Shown one piece after another: positions 5,732 through 14,741 of a stretch of 64,000 nucleotides of DNA (positions are counted from its first letter, which is position 1; each line of letters begins with the position of its first letter). The position numbers and the translations under genes are program-made. The stretch comes from a virus. The notes beneath the pieces are model-generated. The model was not told where the DNA came from and made no database searches. It worked only from the letters and a program-made list of their open reading frames with translations. The stretch is taken from IMG/VR virus record IMGVR_UViG_3300048606_000091; one strand, written 5' to 3'.

Positions 5732-5767
5732 GATCTCCTCAAGAGTTTTGTCAACAGGAGAAGGTAG

Positions 5768-5842
5768 TACCCCCGACAGGATTCGAACCTGCATCGAACG
5801 ACTTAGAAGATCGTTGCCTTATCCAAATTAGACCACGAGGGC
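5768..5842 (-). tRNA. tRNA-Arg(TCT)
   Basis: acceptor GCCCTCG/CGGGGGT, anticodon loop CT-TCT-AA, T-loop TTCGAAT. Confidence 0.9.
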
Positions 5843-5847
5843 TTGCG

Positions 5848-5933
5848 TACCCCCGGCAGGATTCGAACCTGCGATGGTGCTTTCGCACGTCGGATTAAAA
5901 GTCCGGAGAGATCGGCCGCTAGTCGACGAGGGC
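5848..5933 (-). tRNA. tRNA with TTT (Lys) anticodon and long variable arm
   Basis: acceptor GCCCTCG/CGGGGGT, loop CT-TTT-AA, variable hairpin GTGC-GAAA-GCAC, canonical T-arm, weak D-stem. Confidence 0.75.
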
Positions 5934-5955
5934 ATGTCTTATTCAATTGTTGGAG

Positions 5956-6026
5956 AGCCGCAGTCAGGAATCGGACCTGAGTCGATCGTTTACGAGACGA
6001 TTGCTCGACCACTGAGCTACTGCGAC
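5956..6026 (-). tRNA. tRNA-Thr(CGT)
   Basis: acceptor GTCGCAG/CTGCGGC, stem ATCGT/ACGAT, loop CT-CGT-AA. Confidence 0.88.
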
Positions 6027-6037
6027 GAGACATCTTG

Positions 6038-6046
6038 ATTGTACCC
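6038..6046 (-). promoter_or_regulatory. extended -10 promoter element ahead of tRNA-Thr/Lys/Arg
   Basis: GGGTACAAT 12 nt upstream of the tRNA-Thr 5' end; same form as the GGGTA-N-N-A-N motif seen before many genes. Confidence 0.6.
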
Positions 6047-6057
6047 GGAGCGGCAAC

Positions 6058-7185
6058 TGGTAAGTCGTGTGGGGAGGCAAGGGACGCACAAGGGCAGGGA
6101 AGTCAAAAGGGGTAGGAGGGTACGGGGCGCAAGGGGAAGTCGGATGGATTGACGGGGGCACGATCAGGAAAGTCGGGTGGGGATGAGCCGGCGATGGCGA
6201 GGGAAGTCGGGCGGTGGGGGGTGGGATTGGCGAGGGTTGTCGGCTGGAGCGGGTGGGACCGGCGGAGACAGGGTAGTCGGGCGGGCCGGAAGGGCGTGTC
6301 ATGGCACGACCTGGGAAGTCGAACAGGGCGGGGCCGGGTCGAGTTGCGCAGGGTAGTCATACGCGGTGGGACGGTGTGGTACAGCGCGGAAGGTCGGCGG
6401 GGCAGGGTCGGAGAAGGACGGGTAGTCGTGTTGGCTGGCAGTGGGGAGGGACGCTAGGGCAAGGATTGTCATGGGGGAAGTACGGGGATGGGCCGACGCC
6501 GGATAGTCGGAAGAGAAGCCGTGGGTTATCAGGTGACGAGTTGTCGATTCGGGAAGAAAGGGACTGGCCGGAGGAGGTTCGTCGACAAGAGTGGGCCCGG
6601 ATCGCGGAGGTCCAGAGTAGTCAGACGGGGTGGGCAGGGGCGAGATAGGACAGCCAAGTCGGCGGAGTTGGGCGGGATCGCGGGGCCTCGGCTCGGGAGG
6701 TGTAGTCATTCGGGATGGGTGGGACGGGGAAACGGGGGGTTGTCGCGTGGCGAGAACTGAGAGGGCGAGGGGAGTCGGGTGGCGCGGGCTGGGAGGTGCA
6801 GGGGAGAGGGCGAGTAGTCGAAATGGGAAGGGCTGACGGTGGGTTGGGAAGTCGTGGGGATGTGGGACGGCGCGGCGATGGTGGATCTGGTCCGTCAAGC
6901 GGGCTGAGCGGGCACGCATTGGGAAGTCACGGGGATTGGCGGGATGGGGCGCGCGTTGCCACGTCGAGCGGGGAAGGCCGGGACTGAGACGGGTAGTCAC
7001 GCGGGCTGAGCGGGCACGCGGCGCGAGGGCCGGGGAAGTCGGGTGGGACGCAATAGGCGAGGGCCGGGTTGTCACAAGGACAGGCCGGATCTGGTTAGCG
7101 TTGTCGGGGCGGGATGGATCGGCATACGGCGGGAAGTCACACGGGTCGGAAAGGGATGGCACGGGACGGGTCTACTTGTCGTGCG
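6058..7185. repeat. pentamer-phased repeat array 1 (about 30 units)
   Basis: 31 anchors GGGWWGTCR on + strand; manual spacings cluster at 32-34, 37-39, 42-43 and 47 nt; intervening DNA parses as GNNNN/GGNNN pentamers. Confidence 0.9.
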
Positions 7186-7215: not shown

Positions 7216-7419
7216 TTAGTAGGACCGGTGCCTATCCCCGGATTTGACTCCATAGTGTACTACCGGCTTCTCCATCCGGTCCGCCTTGCGGCTTTCGCGC
7301 AACTGCACCTTGAGCACACAGACCAATGCGATGGACACGATAATCAAAACCGTGGCCATCACACCCAGCACAAGCCACTGAAAGTCATCTTCATCCTGCA
7401 TGGTAATTGCGAGCAGCAT
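7216..7419 (-). CDS. small membrane protein
   Basis: TM helix; AAGGAC RBS; GGTAGGAC motif upstream. Confidence 0.65.
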   Translation of the reverse strand: MLLAITMQDEDDFQWLVLGVMATVLIIVSIALVCVLKVQLRESRKADRMEKPVVHYGVKSGDRHRSY

Positions 7420-7808: not shown

Positions 7809-8075
7809 TCAATCCTTAGGAAGGAACAGCACGTCGACATCTGTTTCCGTGTCTGAAATATTCATTACGTAAATCTCTTCACTGACTGTAAATGTAGACT
7901 GAGCATTCAATCGAAACTTGACTGCAGTATCAGACGGGCCATTCACAAGTCGTAAGGGTGCAGAGTTTACAGAATTGAGGTAAATCTCATTTAAAGCTAC
8001 AGATACATCTGAAGCATCGAACAGTCCCACCACACCGTTGGCTGGTATAGTAATCCGTTTTACTGATGCAGACAT
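7809..8075 (-). CDS. AT-rich small beta-strand-rich protein
   Basis: ORF track; GGAGA RBS; similar to 7497-7796. Confidence 0.65.
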   Translation of the reverse strand: MSASVKRITIPANGVVGLFDASDVSVALNEIYLNSVNSAPLRLVNGPSDTAVKFRLNAQSTFTVSEEIYVMNISDTETDVDVLFLPKD

Positions 8076-8130
8076 AGTATCTCCATTACCAAGCTAGGAC
8101 GCGTCAAAACAATATTCGACCTAGCCAACG

Positions 8131-8201
8131 CACCCCCGCCAGGATTCGAACCTGATCTGTCAGTTTAGGAAACTGGTGTGCATCCCGTACACCACGGGGG
8201 C
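8131..8201 (-). tRNA. tRNA-Arg(CCT)
   Basis: acceptor GCCCCCG/CGGGGGT, loop TT-CCT-AA, T-loop TTCGAAT. Confidence 0.85.
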
Positions 8202-8209
8202 TAATGAAG

Positions 8210-8674
8210 TTATGTCCTACCACGCGCGAGCCGGAACGCGGCGGTCAGCGTGCGGGAGATCGACTCGAACTCCTCGCACCACAACGTCGAACCCCGAGCC
8301 CAGTTGAGAGCCTCCACCACCGGCAAGCCCCACTCTCCGTCCACGACCAGCTCGAACGTCGTCCAGTCGATCGCGCCCGAGCGGCCGGTGCGCCAGTGGC
8401 CCCGATAGTTGTACTCGTCCATGTATTCCGCGAGCTTGATGCACTCCGCCTCGGTCAGCTGGATGCGATGCTTGAACGGCTCGTCATTGTCAAGGTCCCG
8501 TGCGCGGCAACTGGCCTTCGCTGCCGCGCGGGTCCACTTGAACAGCTCGTCGTCCTCATCCTCGGCGTCGGCCAGCACGTAGAACTCCGCAGCCAGCTCA
8601 CGCAGCTGAGCAGCCGCGAACGCCTGCGCCTCGGTGGGTCGCTGCACCTTCAGATCTAAGCGTGTGTTCGTCAT
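8210..8674 (-). CDS. hypothetical protein, MTNT class
   Basis: GGGTAGGAC-N6-ATGACGAAC. Confidence 0.75.
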   Translation of the reverse strand: MTNTRLDLKVQRPTEAQAFAAAQLRELAAEFYVLADAEDEDDELFKWTRAAAKASCRARDLDNDEPFKHRIQLTEAECIKLAEYMDEYNYRGHWRTGRSGAIDWTTFELVVDGEWGLPVVEALNWARGSTLWCEEFESISRTLTAAFRLARGRT

Positions 8675-8973
8675 GGTCGTGTCCTACCCCACGCTGGGAT
8701 CTCTTCACGAAAGGACGACCGAACAGACGGATCAAATCGCTGTGCCTCCACCGCTGCCGAGACCAACCGCTGGGCCAACGCGAGCGCTTCCGCTGGAGTG
8801 AACGACTTGGAGATCTCGAAATCGTTCATGTCCTCGTCATAGTACATGAAAGTGTAGTCAATCAGCGGGTCACCCGGGCGGAGCCAGAGCGTGACGTCGC
8901 CCTCGAACCCCACGTCAATGCCCTCCAGAGACTCCGTGCCGGCCAACAGAGGGACTGTGATGTCACGATTCAT
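8671..8973 (-). CDS. hypothetical protein, paralog of N-terminal half of 8963-9568
   Basis: GGAGG RBS before ATG 8973; TPAEALALAQRL motif. Confidence 0.7.
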   Translation of the reverse strand: MNRDITVPLLAGTESLEGIDVGFEGDVTLWLRPGDPLIDYTFMYYDEDMNDFEISKSFTPAEALALAQRLVSAAVEAQRFDPSVRSSFREEIPAWGRTRP

Positions 8974-9568
8974 GATCGTGTCCTCCAAAGACGCCGAAGC
9001 CGTTCTGGACCACCCACGTCTCGACGACCAGCTTGGACAGGTACAGCCCGCGCGCATCGCCGGGTCCGTCTCCGGTCCACAAGCGGAACACCTCAGCCAG
9101 CCGCGCGTCATGCTCGCGGGCTCCCTCAGCGCCGGTAAAACGGGCCAATCGCAGAGCCTTGATCAAGTAGATCTTCAGCGATGACGTGTCCGGCTTGGAC
9201 TTCACGACGGCGCTAAGCATCAAGTCAACCGACGCCGCGTCCGAGATCACCTGCTCAGCAGCCGCCTCAGGAACGATCGGGTGCGAACCCGGAGCACGCG
9301 AGGTGCTCTCCACCGCTGAGAGCAGCCGCTGGGCCAGCGCGTACGCCTCCGATGGAGTCATGTACTTGGTGACCTGATGCTCGTAGTCATCCATATCGAT
9401 CCAAAGGAAACGCAGCTCCACCTCGGGACCGCCGCCGCGATACCAGGCGACTACATCCTCGTCGAACTGCACACGAGAATGGGAGACGTTGCCCAGACCA
9501 CGGCCACCAGAGCTGCTGGAAACGGGAAGGACTAGGGGCACTTCAACGGTGCGATGTGTGTTCGTCAT
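8963..9568 (-). CDS. hypothetical protein, leaderless MTNT class
   Basis: TTGCTA-N18-TAGTAT-N6-ATGACGAAC; TPSEAYALAQRL motif. Confidence 0.75.
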   Translation of the reverse strand: MTNTHRTVEVPLVLPVSSSSGGRGLGNVSHSRVQFDEDVVAWYRGGGPEVELRFLWIDMDDYEHQVTKYMTPSEAYALAQRLLSAVESTSRAPGSHPIVPEAAAEQVISDAASVDLMLSAVVKSKPDTSSLKIYLIKALRLARFTGAEGAREHDARLAEVFRLWTGDGPGDARGLYLSKLVVETWVVQNGFGVFGGHDHES

Positions 9569-9607
9569 GCCTACATACTACCACAAAGTCAGCAAGGATA
9601 GCAAGTG

Positions 9608-9679
9608 TGACCCCTCCAGGAATTGAACCTGGCGCCTCTGCCGTGTCGGGGCAGCGTGCAGCCGATACACCTAGGAGTC
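9608..9679 (-). tRNA. tRNA-Val(GAC)
   Basis: acceptor GACTCCT/AGGGGTC, stem CTGCC/GGCAG, loop CC-GAC-AC, T-loop TTCAATT. Confidence 0.85.
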
Positions 9680-9694
9680 GAACGCCAGAGACTT

Positions 9695-9750
9695 TGCACC
9701 GGCAGGGAGTCGAACCCAGCCTCTGACTTGGGAGCCGTCGACTGCTCCCC
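9695..9750 (-). pseudogene. 3' half tRNA-like remnant
   Basis: GGG-TTCGACT-CCC T-arm and CCGGTGC-A end, no matching 5' acceptor strand. Confidence 0.45.
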
Positions 9751-9751
9751 G

Positions 9752-9826
9752 TGTTCCTGGCTGGAATTGAACCAGCGTTCTCTTCCTTCGCAGGGAAGCG
9801 TGATATCCAGACTTCACCACAGGAAC
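9752..9826 (-). tRNA. tRNA-Arg(GCG)
   Basis: acceptor GTTCCTG/CAGGAAC, stem CTTCC/GGAAG, loop CT-GCG-AA. Confidence 0.9.
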
Positions 9827-9828
9827 AT

Positions 9829-9898
9829 TGGTGGACCTGACCGGCATGGGAGCCGGCGACCTCCCTCAATCGGGTGCTCTACCCTGAGCTACAGGCCC
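9829..9898 (-). ncRNA. tRNA-like RNA with shortened anticodon arm and encoded ACCA
   Basis: acceptor GGGCCTG/CAGGTCC-ACCA, normal D-arm, 12-nt anticodon arm, aberrant T-loop. Confidence 0.6.
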
Positions 9899-9910
9899 TT
9901 GTCTAAAGAA

Positions 9911-10005
9911 GTCAGGGTGAGCAAGGTTACCTGGCTCTGCCAGCCTTGCTCAACGTGCTGAATTACCCGCTAGAACCTGCGCTCTAGGATTCAACACTCC
10001 CTGAC
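9911..10005 (-). ncRNA. candidate 95-nt three-way-junction structured RNA
   Basis: closing GTCAGGG/CCCTGAC; arms GTGTTGAAT/ATTCAGCAC and TGAGCAAGG/CCTTGCTCA, each with a nested hairpin. Confidence 0.6.
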
Positions 10006-10008
10006 CAG

Positions 10009-10080
10009 TACCCCCGGTTGGACTTGAACCAACAACCCTTCCTTTAAGAGAGGAATGCTCTGCATTGGAGCTACGAGGGC
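10009..10080 (-). tRNA. tRNA-Lys(CTT)
   Basis: acceptor GCCCTCG/CGGGGGT, stem TTCCT/AGGAA, loop CT-CTT-AA. Confidence 0.9.
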
Positions 10081-11486: not shown

Positions 11487-12181
11487 TTGTCGTCCTTCTT
11501 CTCACCCAGCTTGGTGTTGATGAAGTCCAGACCGCGCTCCGCGAATCCAAAGATCTTCTCCACGATGTCATCGACGGGATCGACATTGGGCGGTGGCGGC
11601 GTAACCGGAGTCTCGGTACTGGACTTAGTCATGCGGGCAGCGGTCAGCTTCCGGTTGAGAGTACTGACCTCTTCCTGCAGCAAGGAAATACGGGACTGCA
11701 GAACACCCTCCCGGCGAGCCGCATCGGCCAGCGTAGAAAGCTCGGCGCCGCGCAGCCGCACGATCTCATCGCGCACCGCAACCACCCGAGCGGTCAGCGC
11801 GCCAATGTCCTCGCCAGTGATGGCAGGCAGCGATTTGCCTCGACTCACCTCTTGATAGAAGTCGATGATCAGCTGCGCATCAGGTAGCGGGTGCGGCAAC
11901 ACCGGAGGAGAGACCGGCTGTGTGGGCGCCAGACGCGCTACCTTGCCGGCCAGCTGGCCAAGCTCGATGGCCAGATCCGCAGCCGCTGGCAAGCGCTCAG
12001 AGGCCGGGGCTGCGGCTTGAGCAGCCTCCAAGGCACGGACCATCTTCTCCCGGAGCGCATCAGCCTGCGCAGTGGATGTCCCGGAGCGGCCGGACGGGTG
12101 AAGGAATCCCGGAGCGGACCAGATGTGCGGATGGGCGGCAGCCAGTGCCGCATCGACCATGTCAACAGTGATGTTCGTCAT
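11483..12181 (-). CDS. coiled-coil hypothetical protein, MTN class
   Basis: GGGTAGGAC-N6-ATGACGAAC; heptad region near C-terminus. Confidence 0.75.
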   Translation of the reverse strand: MTNITVDMVDAALAAAHPHIWSAPGFLHPSGRSGTSTAQADALREKMVRALEAAQAAAPASERLPAAADLAIELGQLAGKVARLAPTQPVSPPVLPHPLPDAQLIIDFYQEVSRGKSLPAITGEDIGALTARVVAVRDEIVRLRGAELSTLADAARREGVLQSRISLLQEEVSTLNRKLTAARMTKSSTETPVTPPPPNVDPVDDIVEKIFGFAERGLDFINTKLGEKKDDK

Positions 12182-12214
12182 GCCTCTGTCCTACCCTCTG
12201 AGCTGGAGATAGAA

Positions 12215-12251
12215 CAGCACCCCTCGATCATTTCAGAACCGAGGGGTGCTG
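12215..12251 (-). terminator. intrinsic terminator closing the RAMP unit
   Basis: 12-bp inverted repeat CAGCACCCCTCG/CGAGGGGTGCTG followed by TTCTAT on minus strand. Confidence 0.7.
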
Positions 12252-12267
12252 GCCTACTTGATCATCC

Positions 12268-13155
12268 CTAGGCGTTAGCCGAGACCTTGCCATTCGTTGC
12301 CGCTTTGACAGCGGCCGGCTTGCGCTGAGCTGGAACCTTGGGAGCGGCCGGAACCTTGACAGCGGCCTTGGCCTTGCGATTCGCCAGGTACGCCACCGAC
12401 GTGCCGCCGGTGACCAGTGCGCCACCCGGACCGGTCGGGATCTGCTTGAATCCGGTCACCCTGAACTTGCCGTAACTTTGTGAGCGGCTGGCCCCGATGC
12501 CCTGCTCCTCGCCGGTCAGGAAGATCATCGCCCAGTCCCGCTCGGAGATCTCCCAGTCGGTGAGGACGGTGAACTCCAGCACCGCATCGTTGACAACATC
12601 CTCGTATTGAATTCCAGTCCCTCTCCAAGTGTGCACGAACCGCTGCACGGTCTCGGAAGCCTCGTACACGCGGGCACCCTCGGGGCCCAGGAACACCACG
12701 GTGTCGTCGACCACGACGTGCTCGGCCACGAAGCTCTGGATGCCCTTGTTTGTCGTGCCCCATCCTCGTGAGACCAGCTTGTCCGCCGCGACCGCGACAT
12801 TCACGGCCTCCTTCAGCATGGCCTTGACCTGTCGACCCTCGACATAGAAACCGCGCGGCGGCAGCGGGTTGCCCTCTTCGTCCTCGCGCTTGAGTTCGCG
12901 CTTGAAGCTGTTGAGGTGCCGCTTGTCGTTGACAGCCTCGGTGGCCTCTTCGACCGAGACACCCATCTCGGCCATGACCTTTGCGACCTGGTCACGGATG
13001 ACGTCGTCGCTCTGCTCGCCCAGCTTGGTGCGCAGCCATCCCTCGGCCACGTTCTTGTTCACTGGTACGCCACCCGCGATGACCGGGACGGTCAGCTGCA
13101 CGTGGTACTTGAACGGCCACGCCTCGCCACGGAACTGCTCGAAAACCGAATCCAT
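12268..13155 (-). CDS. RAMP superfamily, Cas7/Csm3-like RNA-binding protein with Lys/Ala/Pro tail
   Basis: N-terminal YHVQLTVPVIAGG strand, FYVEGRQVKAMLKEA core, C-terminal G-rich loop GIGASRSQSYGKFRV; GGAGGAG RBS. Confidence 0.75.
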   Translation of the reverse strand: MDSVFEQFRGEAWPFKYHVQLTVPVIAGGVPVNKNVAEGWLRTKLGEQSDDVIRDQVAKVMAEMGVSVEEATEAVNDKRHLNSFKRELKREDEEGNPLPPRGFYVEGRQVKAMLKEAVNVAVAADKLVSRGWGTTNKGIQSFVAEHVVVDDTVVFLGPEGARVYEASETVQRFVHTWRGTGIQYEDVVNDAVLEFTVLTDWEISERDWAMIFLTGEEQGIGASRSQSYGKFRVTGFKQIPTGPGGALVTGGTSVAYLANRKAKAAVKVPAAPKVPAQRKPAAVKAATNGKVSANA

Positions 13156-13208
13156 TATGTTTGCTCCTCCAGGGAATCACAGAACTTGCTTCCGAAACCT
13201 CATACCCG

Positions 13209-13766
13209 CTAGGCAGAAACGTCGTTAACCGCACCGCCTCGATTAACAAGAGAGCGATACATGCGGTTGTATTGCTCTTCAGAAAAGACCTCACCGACCG
13301 TGCGATCTCCCAGTCGATCCGCCACCGCCTTGTGGAACGCAGCCTGCATGAGCGCCCGGTCCGCCGAGATGGAATAGCGCTCCGCGACGAACAGGCAATC
13401 GGTGCGATTCATGTCTCGTACTTGTCGCTGGGTGTCCAGACCGTCCACCACGTATCGGACAGAGAACGGGGACAGCACCGAGACATCTCCGGTCTGGGTG
13501 AACTCCCGGGCGGCCTTGCCGAACGCTCCGGCGGCGGCGTGCTTGCGCGCCCGGGACCGGCGCTGCCGGATGATGCTGGTGATGGCGTCCCGAACGATGG
13601 CCTCCGCGTGCTGGTCCAGCCAGGCGGCCAGCAGCTCCGGGTCCTCGGTGCGCAGCTGAGCCAACAGCCGAGCCGCCACTGAAGACGGAATGATGTCTTC
13701 GTCCACACCAATTGCTGCGTTGATGATATCGCTGAATTGGTTATCAATACGTGATGGATCGCTCAC
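13209..13766 (-). CDS. 185-aa helical protein, putative accessory of the RAMP/array unit
   Basis: lies between array 2 and the RAMP gene; GGGTAGAAC-N6-GTG; basic patch RQRRSRARKH. Confidence 0.75.
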   Translation of the reverse strand: MSDPSRIDNQFSDIINAAIGVDEDIIPSSVAARLLAQLRTEDPELLAAWLDQHAEAIVRDAITSIIRQRRSRARKHAAAGAFGKAAREFTQTGDVSVLSPFSVRYVVDGLDTQRQVRDMNRTDCLFVAERYSISADRALMQAAFHKAVADRLGDRTVGEVFSEEQYNRMYRSLVNRGGAVNDVSA

Positions 13767-13784
13767 GAAGCTGTTCTACCCAAA

Positions 13785-14605
13785 GGAGAGTCGGGTGGGG
13801 TGGCGGGGACTGTGTCTTGGGAAGTCGTGTGGAGTGGCCGGGGCTGTGGCGGGAAGCGGCGGGTGGGGAAGGGAAGTCGGATGGCGAGGGCGGGCGTGCT
13901 TCTGGTGTGGAACGTCGGTATGGCGAGGGGAGCCGAGAGCAGGCACGGATAGTCATCAGGGTTGGTGAGGCCGGACAGGACTAGGATTGTCAATCGGCTT
14001 GGCCTGAGACGTGCCGGCTTGCGAAGTCGAATGGGCTGGCCTGAGCCGAGCTGGATAGTCGGCTGGGGAGATCTGGGTCGGGGCGCGGGGGGCCGGGTAG
14101 GCGTGCGAAGTCATGAGGATCGGTCGGGGTCAATCGGGATAGTCGGCAGCGCGGATCGGGATGAGCAGGCATGGAAAGTCGAATGGCGGGGGCTGGAGTG
14201 AGCTGAAGCGGTTAGTCATCTGGCGGGGGCCGGGGAGCAAAGAGGAGGACTTGCCTAGTCAGCAGGGCAGGGTTGTCTAGGTGGAGGCATGGGAAGTCGG
14301 AGGGGGCGGGGAACGGATTGTCCTGCGGAGACCTGGGAAGTCGGGTTGACCAGGGGTGACGAAACGAAGGGAAGTCGATTGGCATGGAGAGGCAGGGGGT
14401 GAGAAGCGTAGTCATCAGGATAGGAGTGAAGGTGGGCAGCGCTGAAGCTGGGCTAGATAGTCAATAGGTGCGGATTGCCTGGTGAAGGCAAGGAAAGTCG
14501 AAATGACTGGTGTAGTAGCGGCTCGGGTCGTCGAAAGGGCCAGATATGGAAGGAAAGGGTCTGTCACGTGAGCTGGGATGGAGAGCAGATGGGAAGGAAA
14601 GTCAC
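13785..14605. repeat. pentamer-phased repeat array 2 (about 21 units)
   Basis: 22 anchors GG(G/A)WWGTCR; most spacings 32-33, 37-38, 43 or 52 nt; e.g. GGTAT GGCGA GGGGA GCCGA GAGCA GGCAC GGATA-GTC (13917-13954). Confidence 0.9.
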
Positions 14606-14677
14606 GCGAACGGAGGCGTTTAAGCGATGCCCCAGGTGGGGACTCAGACGCACCGGTACCTCAGCTCCGGCACCGAT

Positions 14678-14686
14678 GTACTACCC
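14678..14686 (-). promoter_or_regulatory. candidate promoter for array 2 / RAMP unit
   Basis: GGGTAGTAC with no start codon downstream, just below the helicase terminator. Confidence 0.5.
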
Positions 14687-14700
14687 AGCAAACAAAGGAA

Positions 14701-14730
14701 AGCCCGGCTGACCCCCACTCCAGCCGGGCT
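14701..14730 (-). terminator. intrinsic terminator after the helicase gene
   Basis: 10-bp inverted repeat AGCCCGGCTG/CAGCCGGGCT followed by TTCCTTTGTTT on minus strand. Confidence 0.75.
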
Positions 14731-14741
14731 CTTCTTATGTC

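Follow-up and report, generated by a model that had tools for sequence, protein, structure and literature searches.

A VIPR locus with punctuated, C-rich-sense pentamer arrays in an uncultivated soil actinophage

VIPR is a CRISPR-related class of RNA-guided DNA-silencing systems described in four 2026 preprints, including bioRxiv 10.64898/2026.04.26.720920. According to the accessible text of these preprints, the RAMP protein Vipr polymerises on a GGY/NN guide RNA with one protomer per pentamer, the GGY triplet being hidden and the NN dinucleotide presented; double-stranded DNA (dsDNA) is read with one base skipped per repeat, and competing phages and satellites are silenced. As far as that text goes, the code has been worked out in one family only (GGY/NN). 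The guide RNAs (vrRNAs) of Escherichia phage SUSP1 have been validated by small-RNA sequencing and are described there as G-rich on the vipr-encoding strand. The text also describes "staggered" vrRNA arrays, where a guide's end serves as the beginning of the following guide (bioRxiv 10.64898/2026.04.26.720920), and non-canonical GAC/NN, CAC/NN, WGT/NN and TGH/NN repeats are given in the accessible part of a further preprint (bioRxiv 10.64898/2026.10.21.760802). Here, a 64,000-nt stretch of viral DNA (IMG/VR record IMGVR_UViG_3300048606_000091, referred to as the window) is analysed, in which a 295-aa RAMP gene, a helical accessory gene and two long arrays of phased pentamers are found. These make up a VIPR locus of an uncultivated soil actinophage in which both arrays are C-rich in the sense strand, and we consider it reasonably likely that this C-rich RNA is the guide. 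VIPR as a class is already known, and the locus belongs to a large, experimentally untouched branch of it. Its punctuated short units, in-operon arrays and C-rich sense strand lie beyond what the accessible preprint text describes; that text has no mention of C-rich sense arrays, GTC/GAC punctuation or spacer-filling arrays, and its figures and tables may catalogue the clade.

The closest described relative is the type II system of SUSP1 (10.64898/2026.04.26.720920, 10.64898/2026.04.26.720927, as given in their accessible text). Shared with it are a minimal RAMP of one RRM that has helix 1, a thumb and a loop rich in glycine (G-loop), a small accessory gene beside vipr, carriage by a phage, the lack of detected cas genes, arrays on the strand that the operon transcribes, and the long non-coding arrays themselves, with their 5-nt rhythm of a constrained triplet and two free bases. 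Sequence relatedness is marginal, however (hhalign E 2.4e-4). SUSP1 guides are described as ~100 nt long, each with 9-16 GGY/NN repeats, a structured 40-nt tail and its own promoter, whereas the units found here have 5-9 repeats and no tail, and ~50 of them stand under two promoters. The sense strand is G-rich in SUSP1 and C-rich in this clade, and the SUSP1 residues R138 and D177 align with different residues here. With other VIPR types (10.64898/2026.04.26.720920, 10.64898/2026.10.21.760802, accessible text) the locus has in common altered or degenerate triplets, staggered arrays and a Vipr-like fold beside non-GGY period-5 arrays. The backbone subunits of class 1 CRISPR systems (Cas7, Csm3 and Cmr4; types III, IV and VII) share the RAMP fold and presumably a guide-RNA filament built in fixed steps, but the steps are 5 nt here and 6 nt there, no CRISPR repeats and spacers were detected in the window, and no Cas5, Cas6, Cas10, Cas11 or adaptation genes among the proteins scanned.

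The 295-aa protein is a Vipr. Its AlphaFold (AF2) model, built on 72 homologues (predicted local distance difference test score, pLDDT, 87.3; predicted template modelling score, pTM, 0.79), has an RRM core with a three-helix insertion at residues 34-77, a long beta-hairpin at 168-199 that forms the thumb, and a glycine-rich loop at 219-233. A first-pass annotation of the window had proposed a RAMP from three motifs, which were found at residues 17-29, 104-117 and 219-233, and the structure search that it had suggested returned Csm3 and Cas7 subunits of types III and VII as the top PDB matches. In the search of AFDB clusters, ranks 1-5 were held by A0A2D6XG06, A0A1F4YLN4, X1U2U4, A0A0F9A1L0 and A0A661D0E2 (E 8e-13 to 3.5e-6). 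These five accessions are the founding Vipr seeds named in the accessible text of the VIPR discovery paper (bioRxiv 10.64898/2026.04.26.720920), and they outrank every CRISPR RAMP in the search, including Cmr6 and Csm3. Profile-profile alignment with the SUSP1 Vipr family brought helix 1 and the G-loop into register. The protein is assigned to Vipr because its five top AFDB clusters are Vipr seeds and because its profile matches that of the SUSP1 family. The first-pass annotation had read the locus as a stand-alone RAMP gene in one unit with a pentamer-phased array, a candidate RNA-guided phage system that it likened to VIPR; this reading is supported, VIPR having been published and the five nearest AFDB clusters being its seeds.

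Neither Vipr nor the accessory protein gave a match in Pfam, PHROGs, NCBIfam or PADLOC, and megablast against cultured phages was likewise without a match. Homologues are nevertheless numerous, with 1,141 found at E <= 1e-3 in a word-indexed search and 419 cluster representatives in an exhaustive one; most are metagenomic and ~220-250 aa long, and the few named ones are actinobacterial. The first-pass annotation had recognised no cas1, cas2, cas3, cas8 or cas10 in the window. A Pfam scan of 14 proteins between 4.2 and 17.6 kb found no Cas family; NCBIfam and PADLOC, applied to the four proteins whose open reading frames (ORFs) form the locus itself, found none either. Residues 240-295 of Vipr (12268-12435) form a basic, low-complexity tail rich in Ala, Pro and Lys, with nine Lys or Arg and no Asp or Glu, which may add non-specific DNA affinity. 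A C-terminal extension is found in the closest relatives only (267-286 aa), most family members ending at ~222 aa.

In array 2, the one next to the accessory gene and vipr, G makes up 44% and C 18% of the plus strand. Its lag-5 G autocorrelation, a check named in the first-pass annotation, is 0.238 (z = 6.8), compared with 0.00 +/- 0.035 and a maximum of 0.133 in 2000 dinucleotide-preserving shuffles. Global period-5 power of the same array is non-significant because the phase resets at every GTC anchor. When every GTC was counted and spacings of 25-80 nt were taken, 12 of 17 anchor spacings in array 2 were 2 or 3 mod 5 (16 of 21 in the earlier manual count), as were 22 of 27 in array 1. Units between anchors are 32/33, 37/38, 42/43, 47 or 52 nt long, growing in 5-nt steps, and G is found at positions -5, -10, -15, -20 and -25 from the G of GTC in 95, 82, 77, 85 and 92% of units, respectively. 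The phased pentamers have the plus-strand consensus G(88%) G(64%) V N N. Their positional entropies are 0.65, 1.43, 1.78, 1.99 and 1.94 bits, the last two being maximal; the third position is G in 44% and T in only 7%. GGY was not found as a fixed triplet; the triplet is G-G-V when the plus strand is read, or B-C-C when the sense strand is. With period, unit lengths, phased G and free-position entropy all measured, the pentamer-phased array is confirmed as an observation.

Read in the sense direction, each unit runs GAC-WW, YCC-NN, (BCC-NN)n and then a 2-3-nt linker; read on the plus strand, it is a series of GGVNN pentamers with a terminal GGRWA-GTC. The 7-8-nt GTC/GAC anchors are the only separators, and the units carry no tail. 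The signal is confined to two places in the window, array 2 and array 1, which together hold ~50 guide units. No CRISPR-like tandem-repeat array was found in the window, and an Rfam search of the window and four relatives returned tRNAs only, with no hammerhead or other family within the arrays. The possibility that the anchors are themselves -10 boxes (GGGTAGTC resembles GGGTAGTAC) was considered and dropped, distant relatives keeping GTCG only.

The comparison covered 70 related IMG/VR viral loci with Vipr identities of 25-55%. A period-5, strand-asymmetric array was present within 1.5 kb of vipr in 62 of the 70, on either side of the gene among relatives, and its units differ among themselves and between close relatives. 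The GTC(G) anchor is kept down to 25% protein identity, and relatives' arrays show a 3.2-fold enrichment of GTCG. Three differences from VIPR that the first-pass annotation had noted, namely that the pentamer begins with G and is degenerate, that GTC forms an anchor of its own and that the strand apparently transcribed is C-rich, hold clade-wide. In 30 of 73 related loci, vipr has a homologue of the accessory gene directly upstream of it, on its own strand. The accessory protein is modelled as all-helical (pLDDT 83); Foldseek found no PDB match and only weak, DUF222-like best matches in AFDB (E 0.03-0.05), and a protein atlas search was without result.

Some relatives have layouts of their own. 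Among cultured phages a single carrier was found, the Microcystis phage Mae-JY09 (PP395641.1), whose locus (5956-7150) sits unannotated at the right end of the deposited genome, with Vipr labelled "hypothetical protein"; after vipr come a C-rich array of 380 nt, in which the anchors are CGAC-WW-CCC, and a hairpin whose stem is ~12 bp long. One distant relative (L069, 25% identity) has two very large arrays, at 7900-10050 (2.1 kb) and 11750-13150 (1.4 kb), which show the strongest period-5 signal seen (0.54-0.59) and a longer anchor, GTCGTGACGG on the G-rich strand. In the subclade of L029 and L031, a vipr-vap cassette stands between two inverted arrays whose C-rich strands point away from the cassette; the vap stop and the downstream array are separated by a hairpin.

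The orientation of the arrays is strongly biased. Within the clade, the vipr strand is the C-rich one in 74 of 78 arrays and the G-rich one in 4, whereas the same scan applied to SUSP1 and eight of its relatives (down to 37% identity) found all 19 arrays G-rich on that strand. Array sequence takes up the entire vap-vipr spacer (212-1923 nt, 45-57% C) in at least 22 loci, beginning a few to ~50 nt past the vap stop and in most cases ending ~4-35 nt before the vipr start, directly at the Shine-Dalgarno sequence. Such a spacer, being all array, has no room for a vipr promoter, and vipr must therefore be transcribed through the array. In the window, each array has one phage -10 box directed into the C-rich strand, and separate boxes precede the accessory gene and the tRNA cluster. 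The rare inverted arrays (in L031 and L033) have a conserved extended -10 box (TGCTAGGCT, TGCTAAGTT), again directed into their C-rich strand. Antisense -10-like hexamers in the first 160 nt of vipr are not enriched where an array abuts the gene (23% vs 28% elsewhere). As judged from these sequence signals, promoter and operon layout are predicted to put the C-rich strand into RNA.

Properties of the RNA and of the protein bear on the same question. Folding energy per 120 nt is -17 kcal/mol for the C-rich RNA, -35 for the G-rich strand and about -40 for the coding RNA of this genome; the leaders fold with similar energies on both strands. The guanine-reading residues R138 and D177 of SUSP1, invariant in that family, align with Glu/Asp and with a nearly invariant Ala here. 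The Arg that follows those positions (R224) is kept, and H17 of SUSP1, also invariant, lies outside the aligned region. Taken with the layout, these sequence data suggest that the C-rich RNA is probably the guide, made of BCC/NN pentamers headed by GAC.

A mechanism can be proposed by analogy with the solved SUSP1 complex. A phage promoter belonging to each array would drive its transcription in the gene-sense direction into a long, C-rich and nearly unstructured precursor. Units would be delimited by the in-phase GAC-WW pentamer and the 2-3-nt linker, followed by 5-9 pentamers in which the last C of B-C-C is the most fixed position. One Vipr protomer would seat on each pentamer, 6-10 per unit, in a filament that conceals the constrained triplet and displays the free dinucleotides, and the anchors would set the filament ends or the cutting sites. 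The free dinucleotides would then specify a gapped dsDNA site of ~15-30 bp in a rival phage or mobile element, leading to its silencing, with the accessory protein assisting as vap1 does in SUSP1. Processing at the anchors, into the 32-52-nt RNAs that the first-pass annotation had proposed, the ratio of one protomer per pentamer, gapped targeting with one base skipped per repeat and competitor silencing are all inferred from the described systems.

Several observations weigh against C-rich guides, and some against guides of either strand. All characterised VIPR guides are G-based, and the NNNGG-type repeats listed for VIPR match the other strand of these arrays (bioRxiv 10.64898/2026.04.26.720920, accessible text). 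The conservation gradient of the triplet mirrors GGY/NN on the G-rich strand and is reversed on the C-rich one. Scans of 88 arrays for terminators, generic promoters and a CCGGRG leader motif favoured neither strand, and promoters of an unusual type may yet lie on the G-rich strand. Searches for RNA runs covering the window or its relatives turned up nothing but soil or unlabelled DNA and a single, unrelated oligo-dT run of marine origin. No recognisable DNA-binding fold was found in structure searches with the accessory protein. A local gapped target search with 285 guides under 8 rules, made against 2.4 Mb of related phage DNA with arrays masked, gave no excess over shuffled guides, and IMG/VR contained no exact gapped match to either of two 13-pentamer guides taken from relatives (26 bases specified). 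The null target searches say little because the guides are short and few soil phages are in the databases, and a target search cannot settle the strand because the same two positions are free on either.

The guides might instead be the G-rich strand, as GGV-NN units ending in GGRWA-GUC, transcribed antisense to vipr, and against the prevailing transcription of the phage, from promoters that went unrecognised here; the C-rich sense transcript would then only serve the operon as leader or spacer, or regulate the guides in antisense. This is possible but the less probable reading. It agrees with the GGY/NN form of all vrRNAs studied, the discovery paper reporting also NNNGG, YNNNG and NNNNG variants in its accessible text, and with the polarity of the triplet gradient (88, 64 and 44% G ahead of the two free positions). 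As in SUSP1, the vipr strand of the upstream array is rich in G in L029 and L031, and the hairpin at 14695-14736 in the window has a T-rich stretch after it on the plus strand too. Yet G-rich guides would require an antisense promoter inside vipr or vap coding sequence in dozens of loci, where no -10-like enrichment is seen. They would also leave unexplained an orientation bias of 74 to 4, opposite to that of the validated family, and give no role to the two array-directed promoters, and the SUSP1 residues that read G are not kept. An improbable alternative is that the arrays are a cis element, for example a long unstructured leader or spacer RNA through whose binding Vipr regulates its operon and the tRNA cluster, or an element acting as DNA, such as iterons that bind protein. 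The null target searches, the position of the arrays within operons and the shortness of the units, with only 5-9 variable dinucleotides, would all fit it. However, the free positions are at maximal entropy and the units vary between each other and between close relatives, which is the signature of guides that carry specificity and unlike a binding site in repeated copies. Nor does a dsDNA site go well with a 5-nt period that is confined to one strand and extremely asymmetric between strands, and array 1 lies 5 kb from vipr, with the arrays of relatives on either side of the gene. That the protein is an orphan CRISPR Cas7/Csm3 captured by the phage, for example as a decoy or anti-CRISPR, and unrelated to the repeats, is very improbable: Csm3/Cas7 subunits are indeed its top PDB matches, but the Vipr seeds outrank all CRISPR RAMPs in AFDB, a period-5 array stands beside the gene in 62 of 70 homologous loci, and neither a CRISPR array nor a cas gene (in the 14 proteins scanned, 4.2-17.6 kb) was detected.

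If the guides are C-rich, the finding would extend beyond this locus. We think it fairly probable that the whole Vipr branch (at least 1,100 proteins, mostly from actinobacterial phages, with one cultured cyanophage) reads the complement of the canonical code, using C-rich sense (B-C-C)(N-N) guides in GAC-started units within a vap-vipr operon. The base-reading pockets of Vipr would then have been re-specified from G to C, showing that the protein can re-specify the fixed part of the code, which matters for the engineering of orthogonal Vipr-guide pairs. Guides could be as short as 5-9 dinucleotides. Branch arrays annotated by analogy as NNNGG repeats would have been assigned to the wrong strand, and guide and target prediction in the branch would have to begin from the other one. 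The locus is also a compact cassette (2.5 kb, one promoter and ~22 guides) from a high-GC host range in which such tools are scarce. If the guides are G-rich instead, it would be one more VIPR locus with an unusual antisense layout.

The features of the locus are collected in Table 1. All parts named in the first-pass annotation (both terminators, the promoter box, the array and the two ORFs) were found where it had placed them. The order on the minus strand is helicase-gene terminator, box, leader, array 2, second box, 185-aa ORF, 295-aa ORF and terminator, and the terminator-promoter-leader-array part of it is kept in relatives L073 (GGTATTAC) and L001 (GGTAGAAT), the former with a leader homologous to that of array 2.

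Table 1. Features of the VIPR locus and its surroundings in the 64,000-nt window.
Feature	Position (nt)	Strand	Remarks
Terminator hairpin	14732-14699	minus	ends upstream helicase gene
Promoter box GGTAGTAC	14685-14678	minus	directed into array 2, C-rich strand; no ORF start after box
Non-coding leader, ~68 nt	14604-14671	minus	from array promoter to first anchor; read from sequence
Array 2, 820 nt	13785-14603	minus	~22 units of 5-9 pentamers
Promoter box GGTAGAAC, -10 type	13773-13780	minus	6 nt upstream of accessory-gene GTG
vap-like accessory gene, 185 aa	13209-13766	minus	leaderless GTG start
vipr, 295 aa	12268-13155	minus	Vipr-family RAMP
Terminator hairpin	12251-12215	minus	closes array-vap-vipr unit
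Promoter box GGTAGTAC	7257-7264	minus	directed into array 1, C-rich strand; leader ~75 nt
Array 1, 1.1 kb	6060-7172	minus	~30 units, design as array 2; 5 kb from vipr, adjoins tRNA cluster
Separate -10 box GGTACAAT	6038-6045	minus	just past array 1, 5-6 nt upstream of tRNA-Thr; read from sequence
tRNA genes, seven in three groups	5767-6026, 8130-8201, 9607-10080	minus	
GGTAGNAC box, examples	3252, 8681, 12188, 13773, 14678, 21380, 37314, 61506	minus	
UvrD/PcrA-like helicase gene, 889 aa	14742-17411	minus	upstream of array 2; intein-like insert

The GGTAGNAC box occurs in 25 copies in the window, against 4 expected, and 22 of the 25 are on the minus (gene) strand, usually 6 nt upstream of a leaderless ATG or GTG. 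The same box is seen in relatives L001, L073 and L074, on the gene strand only. Its distribution identifies it as the predicted phage-wide -10-type promoter for leaderless mRNAs.

The phage context of the locus is given by this leaderless promoter regulon, a helicase recognised by PHROGs and seven tRNA genes. In the upstream UvrD/PcrA-like helicase, the intein-like insert spans approximately residues 265-551 and is indicated by weak matches to Intein_splicing, Hint and the NCBIfam intein C-terminal motif. The tRNA set comprises Arg-TCT, Lys-TTT (whose variable arm is long), Thr-CGT, Arg-CCT, Val-GAC, Arg-GCG and Lys-CTT. The first tRNA group has array 1 immediately upstream of it, and the tRNAs are predicted to be independent of the array promoter because they have a -10 box of their own.

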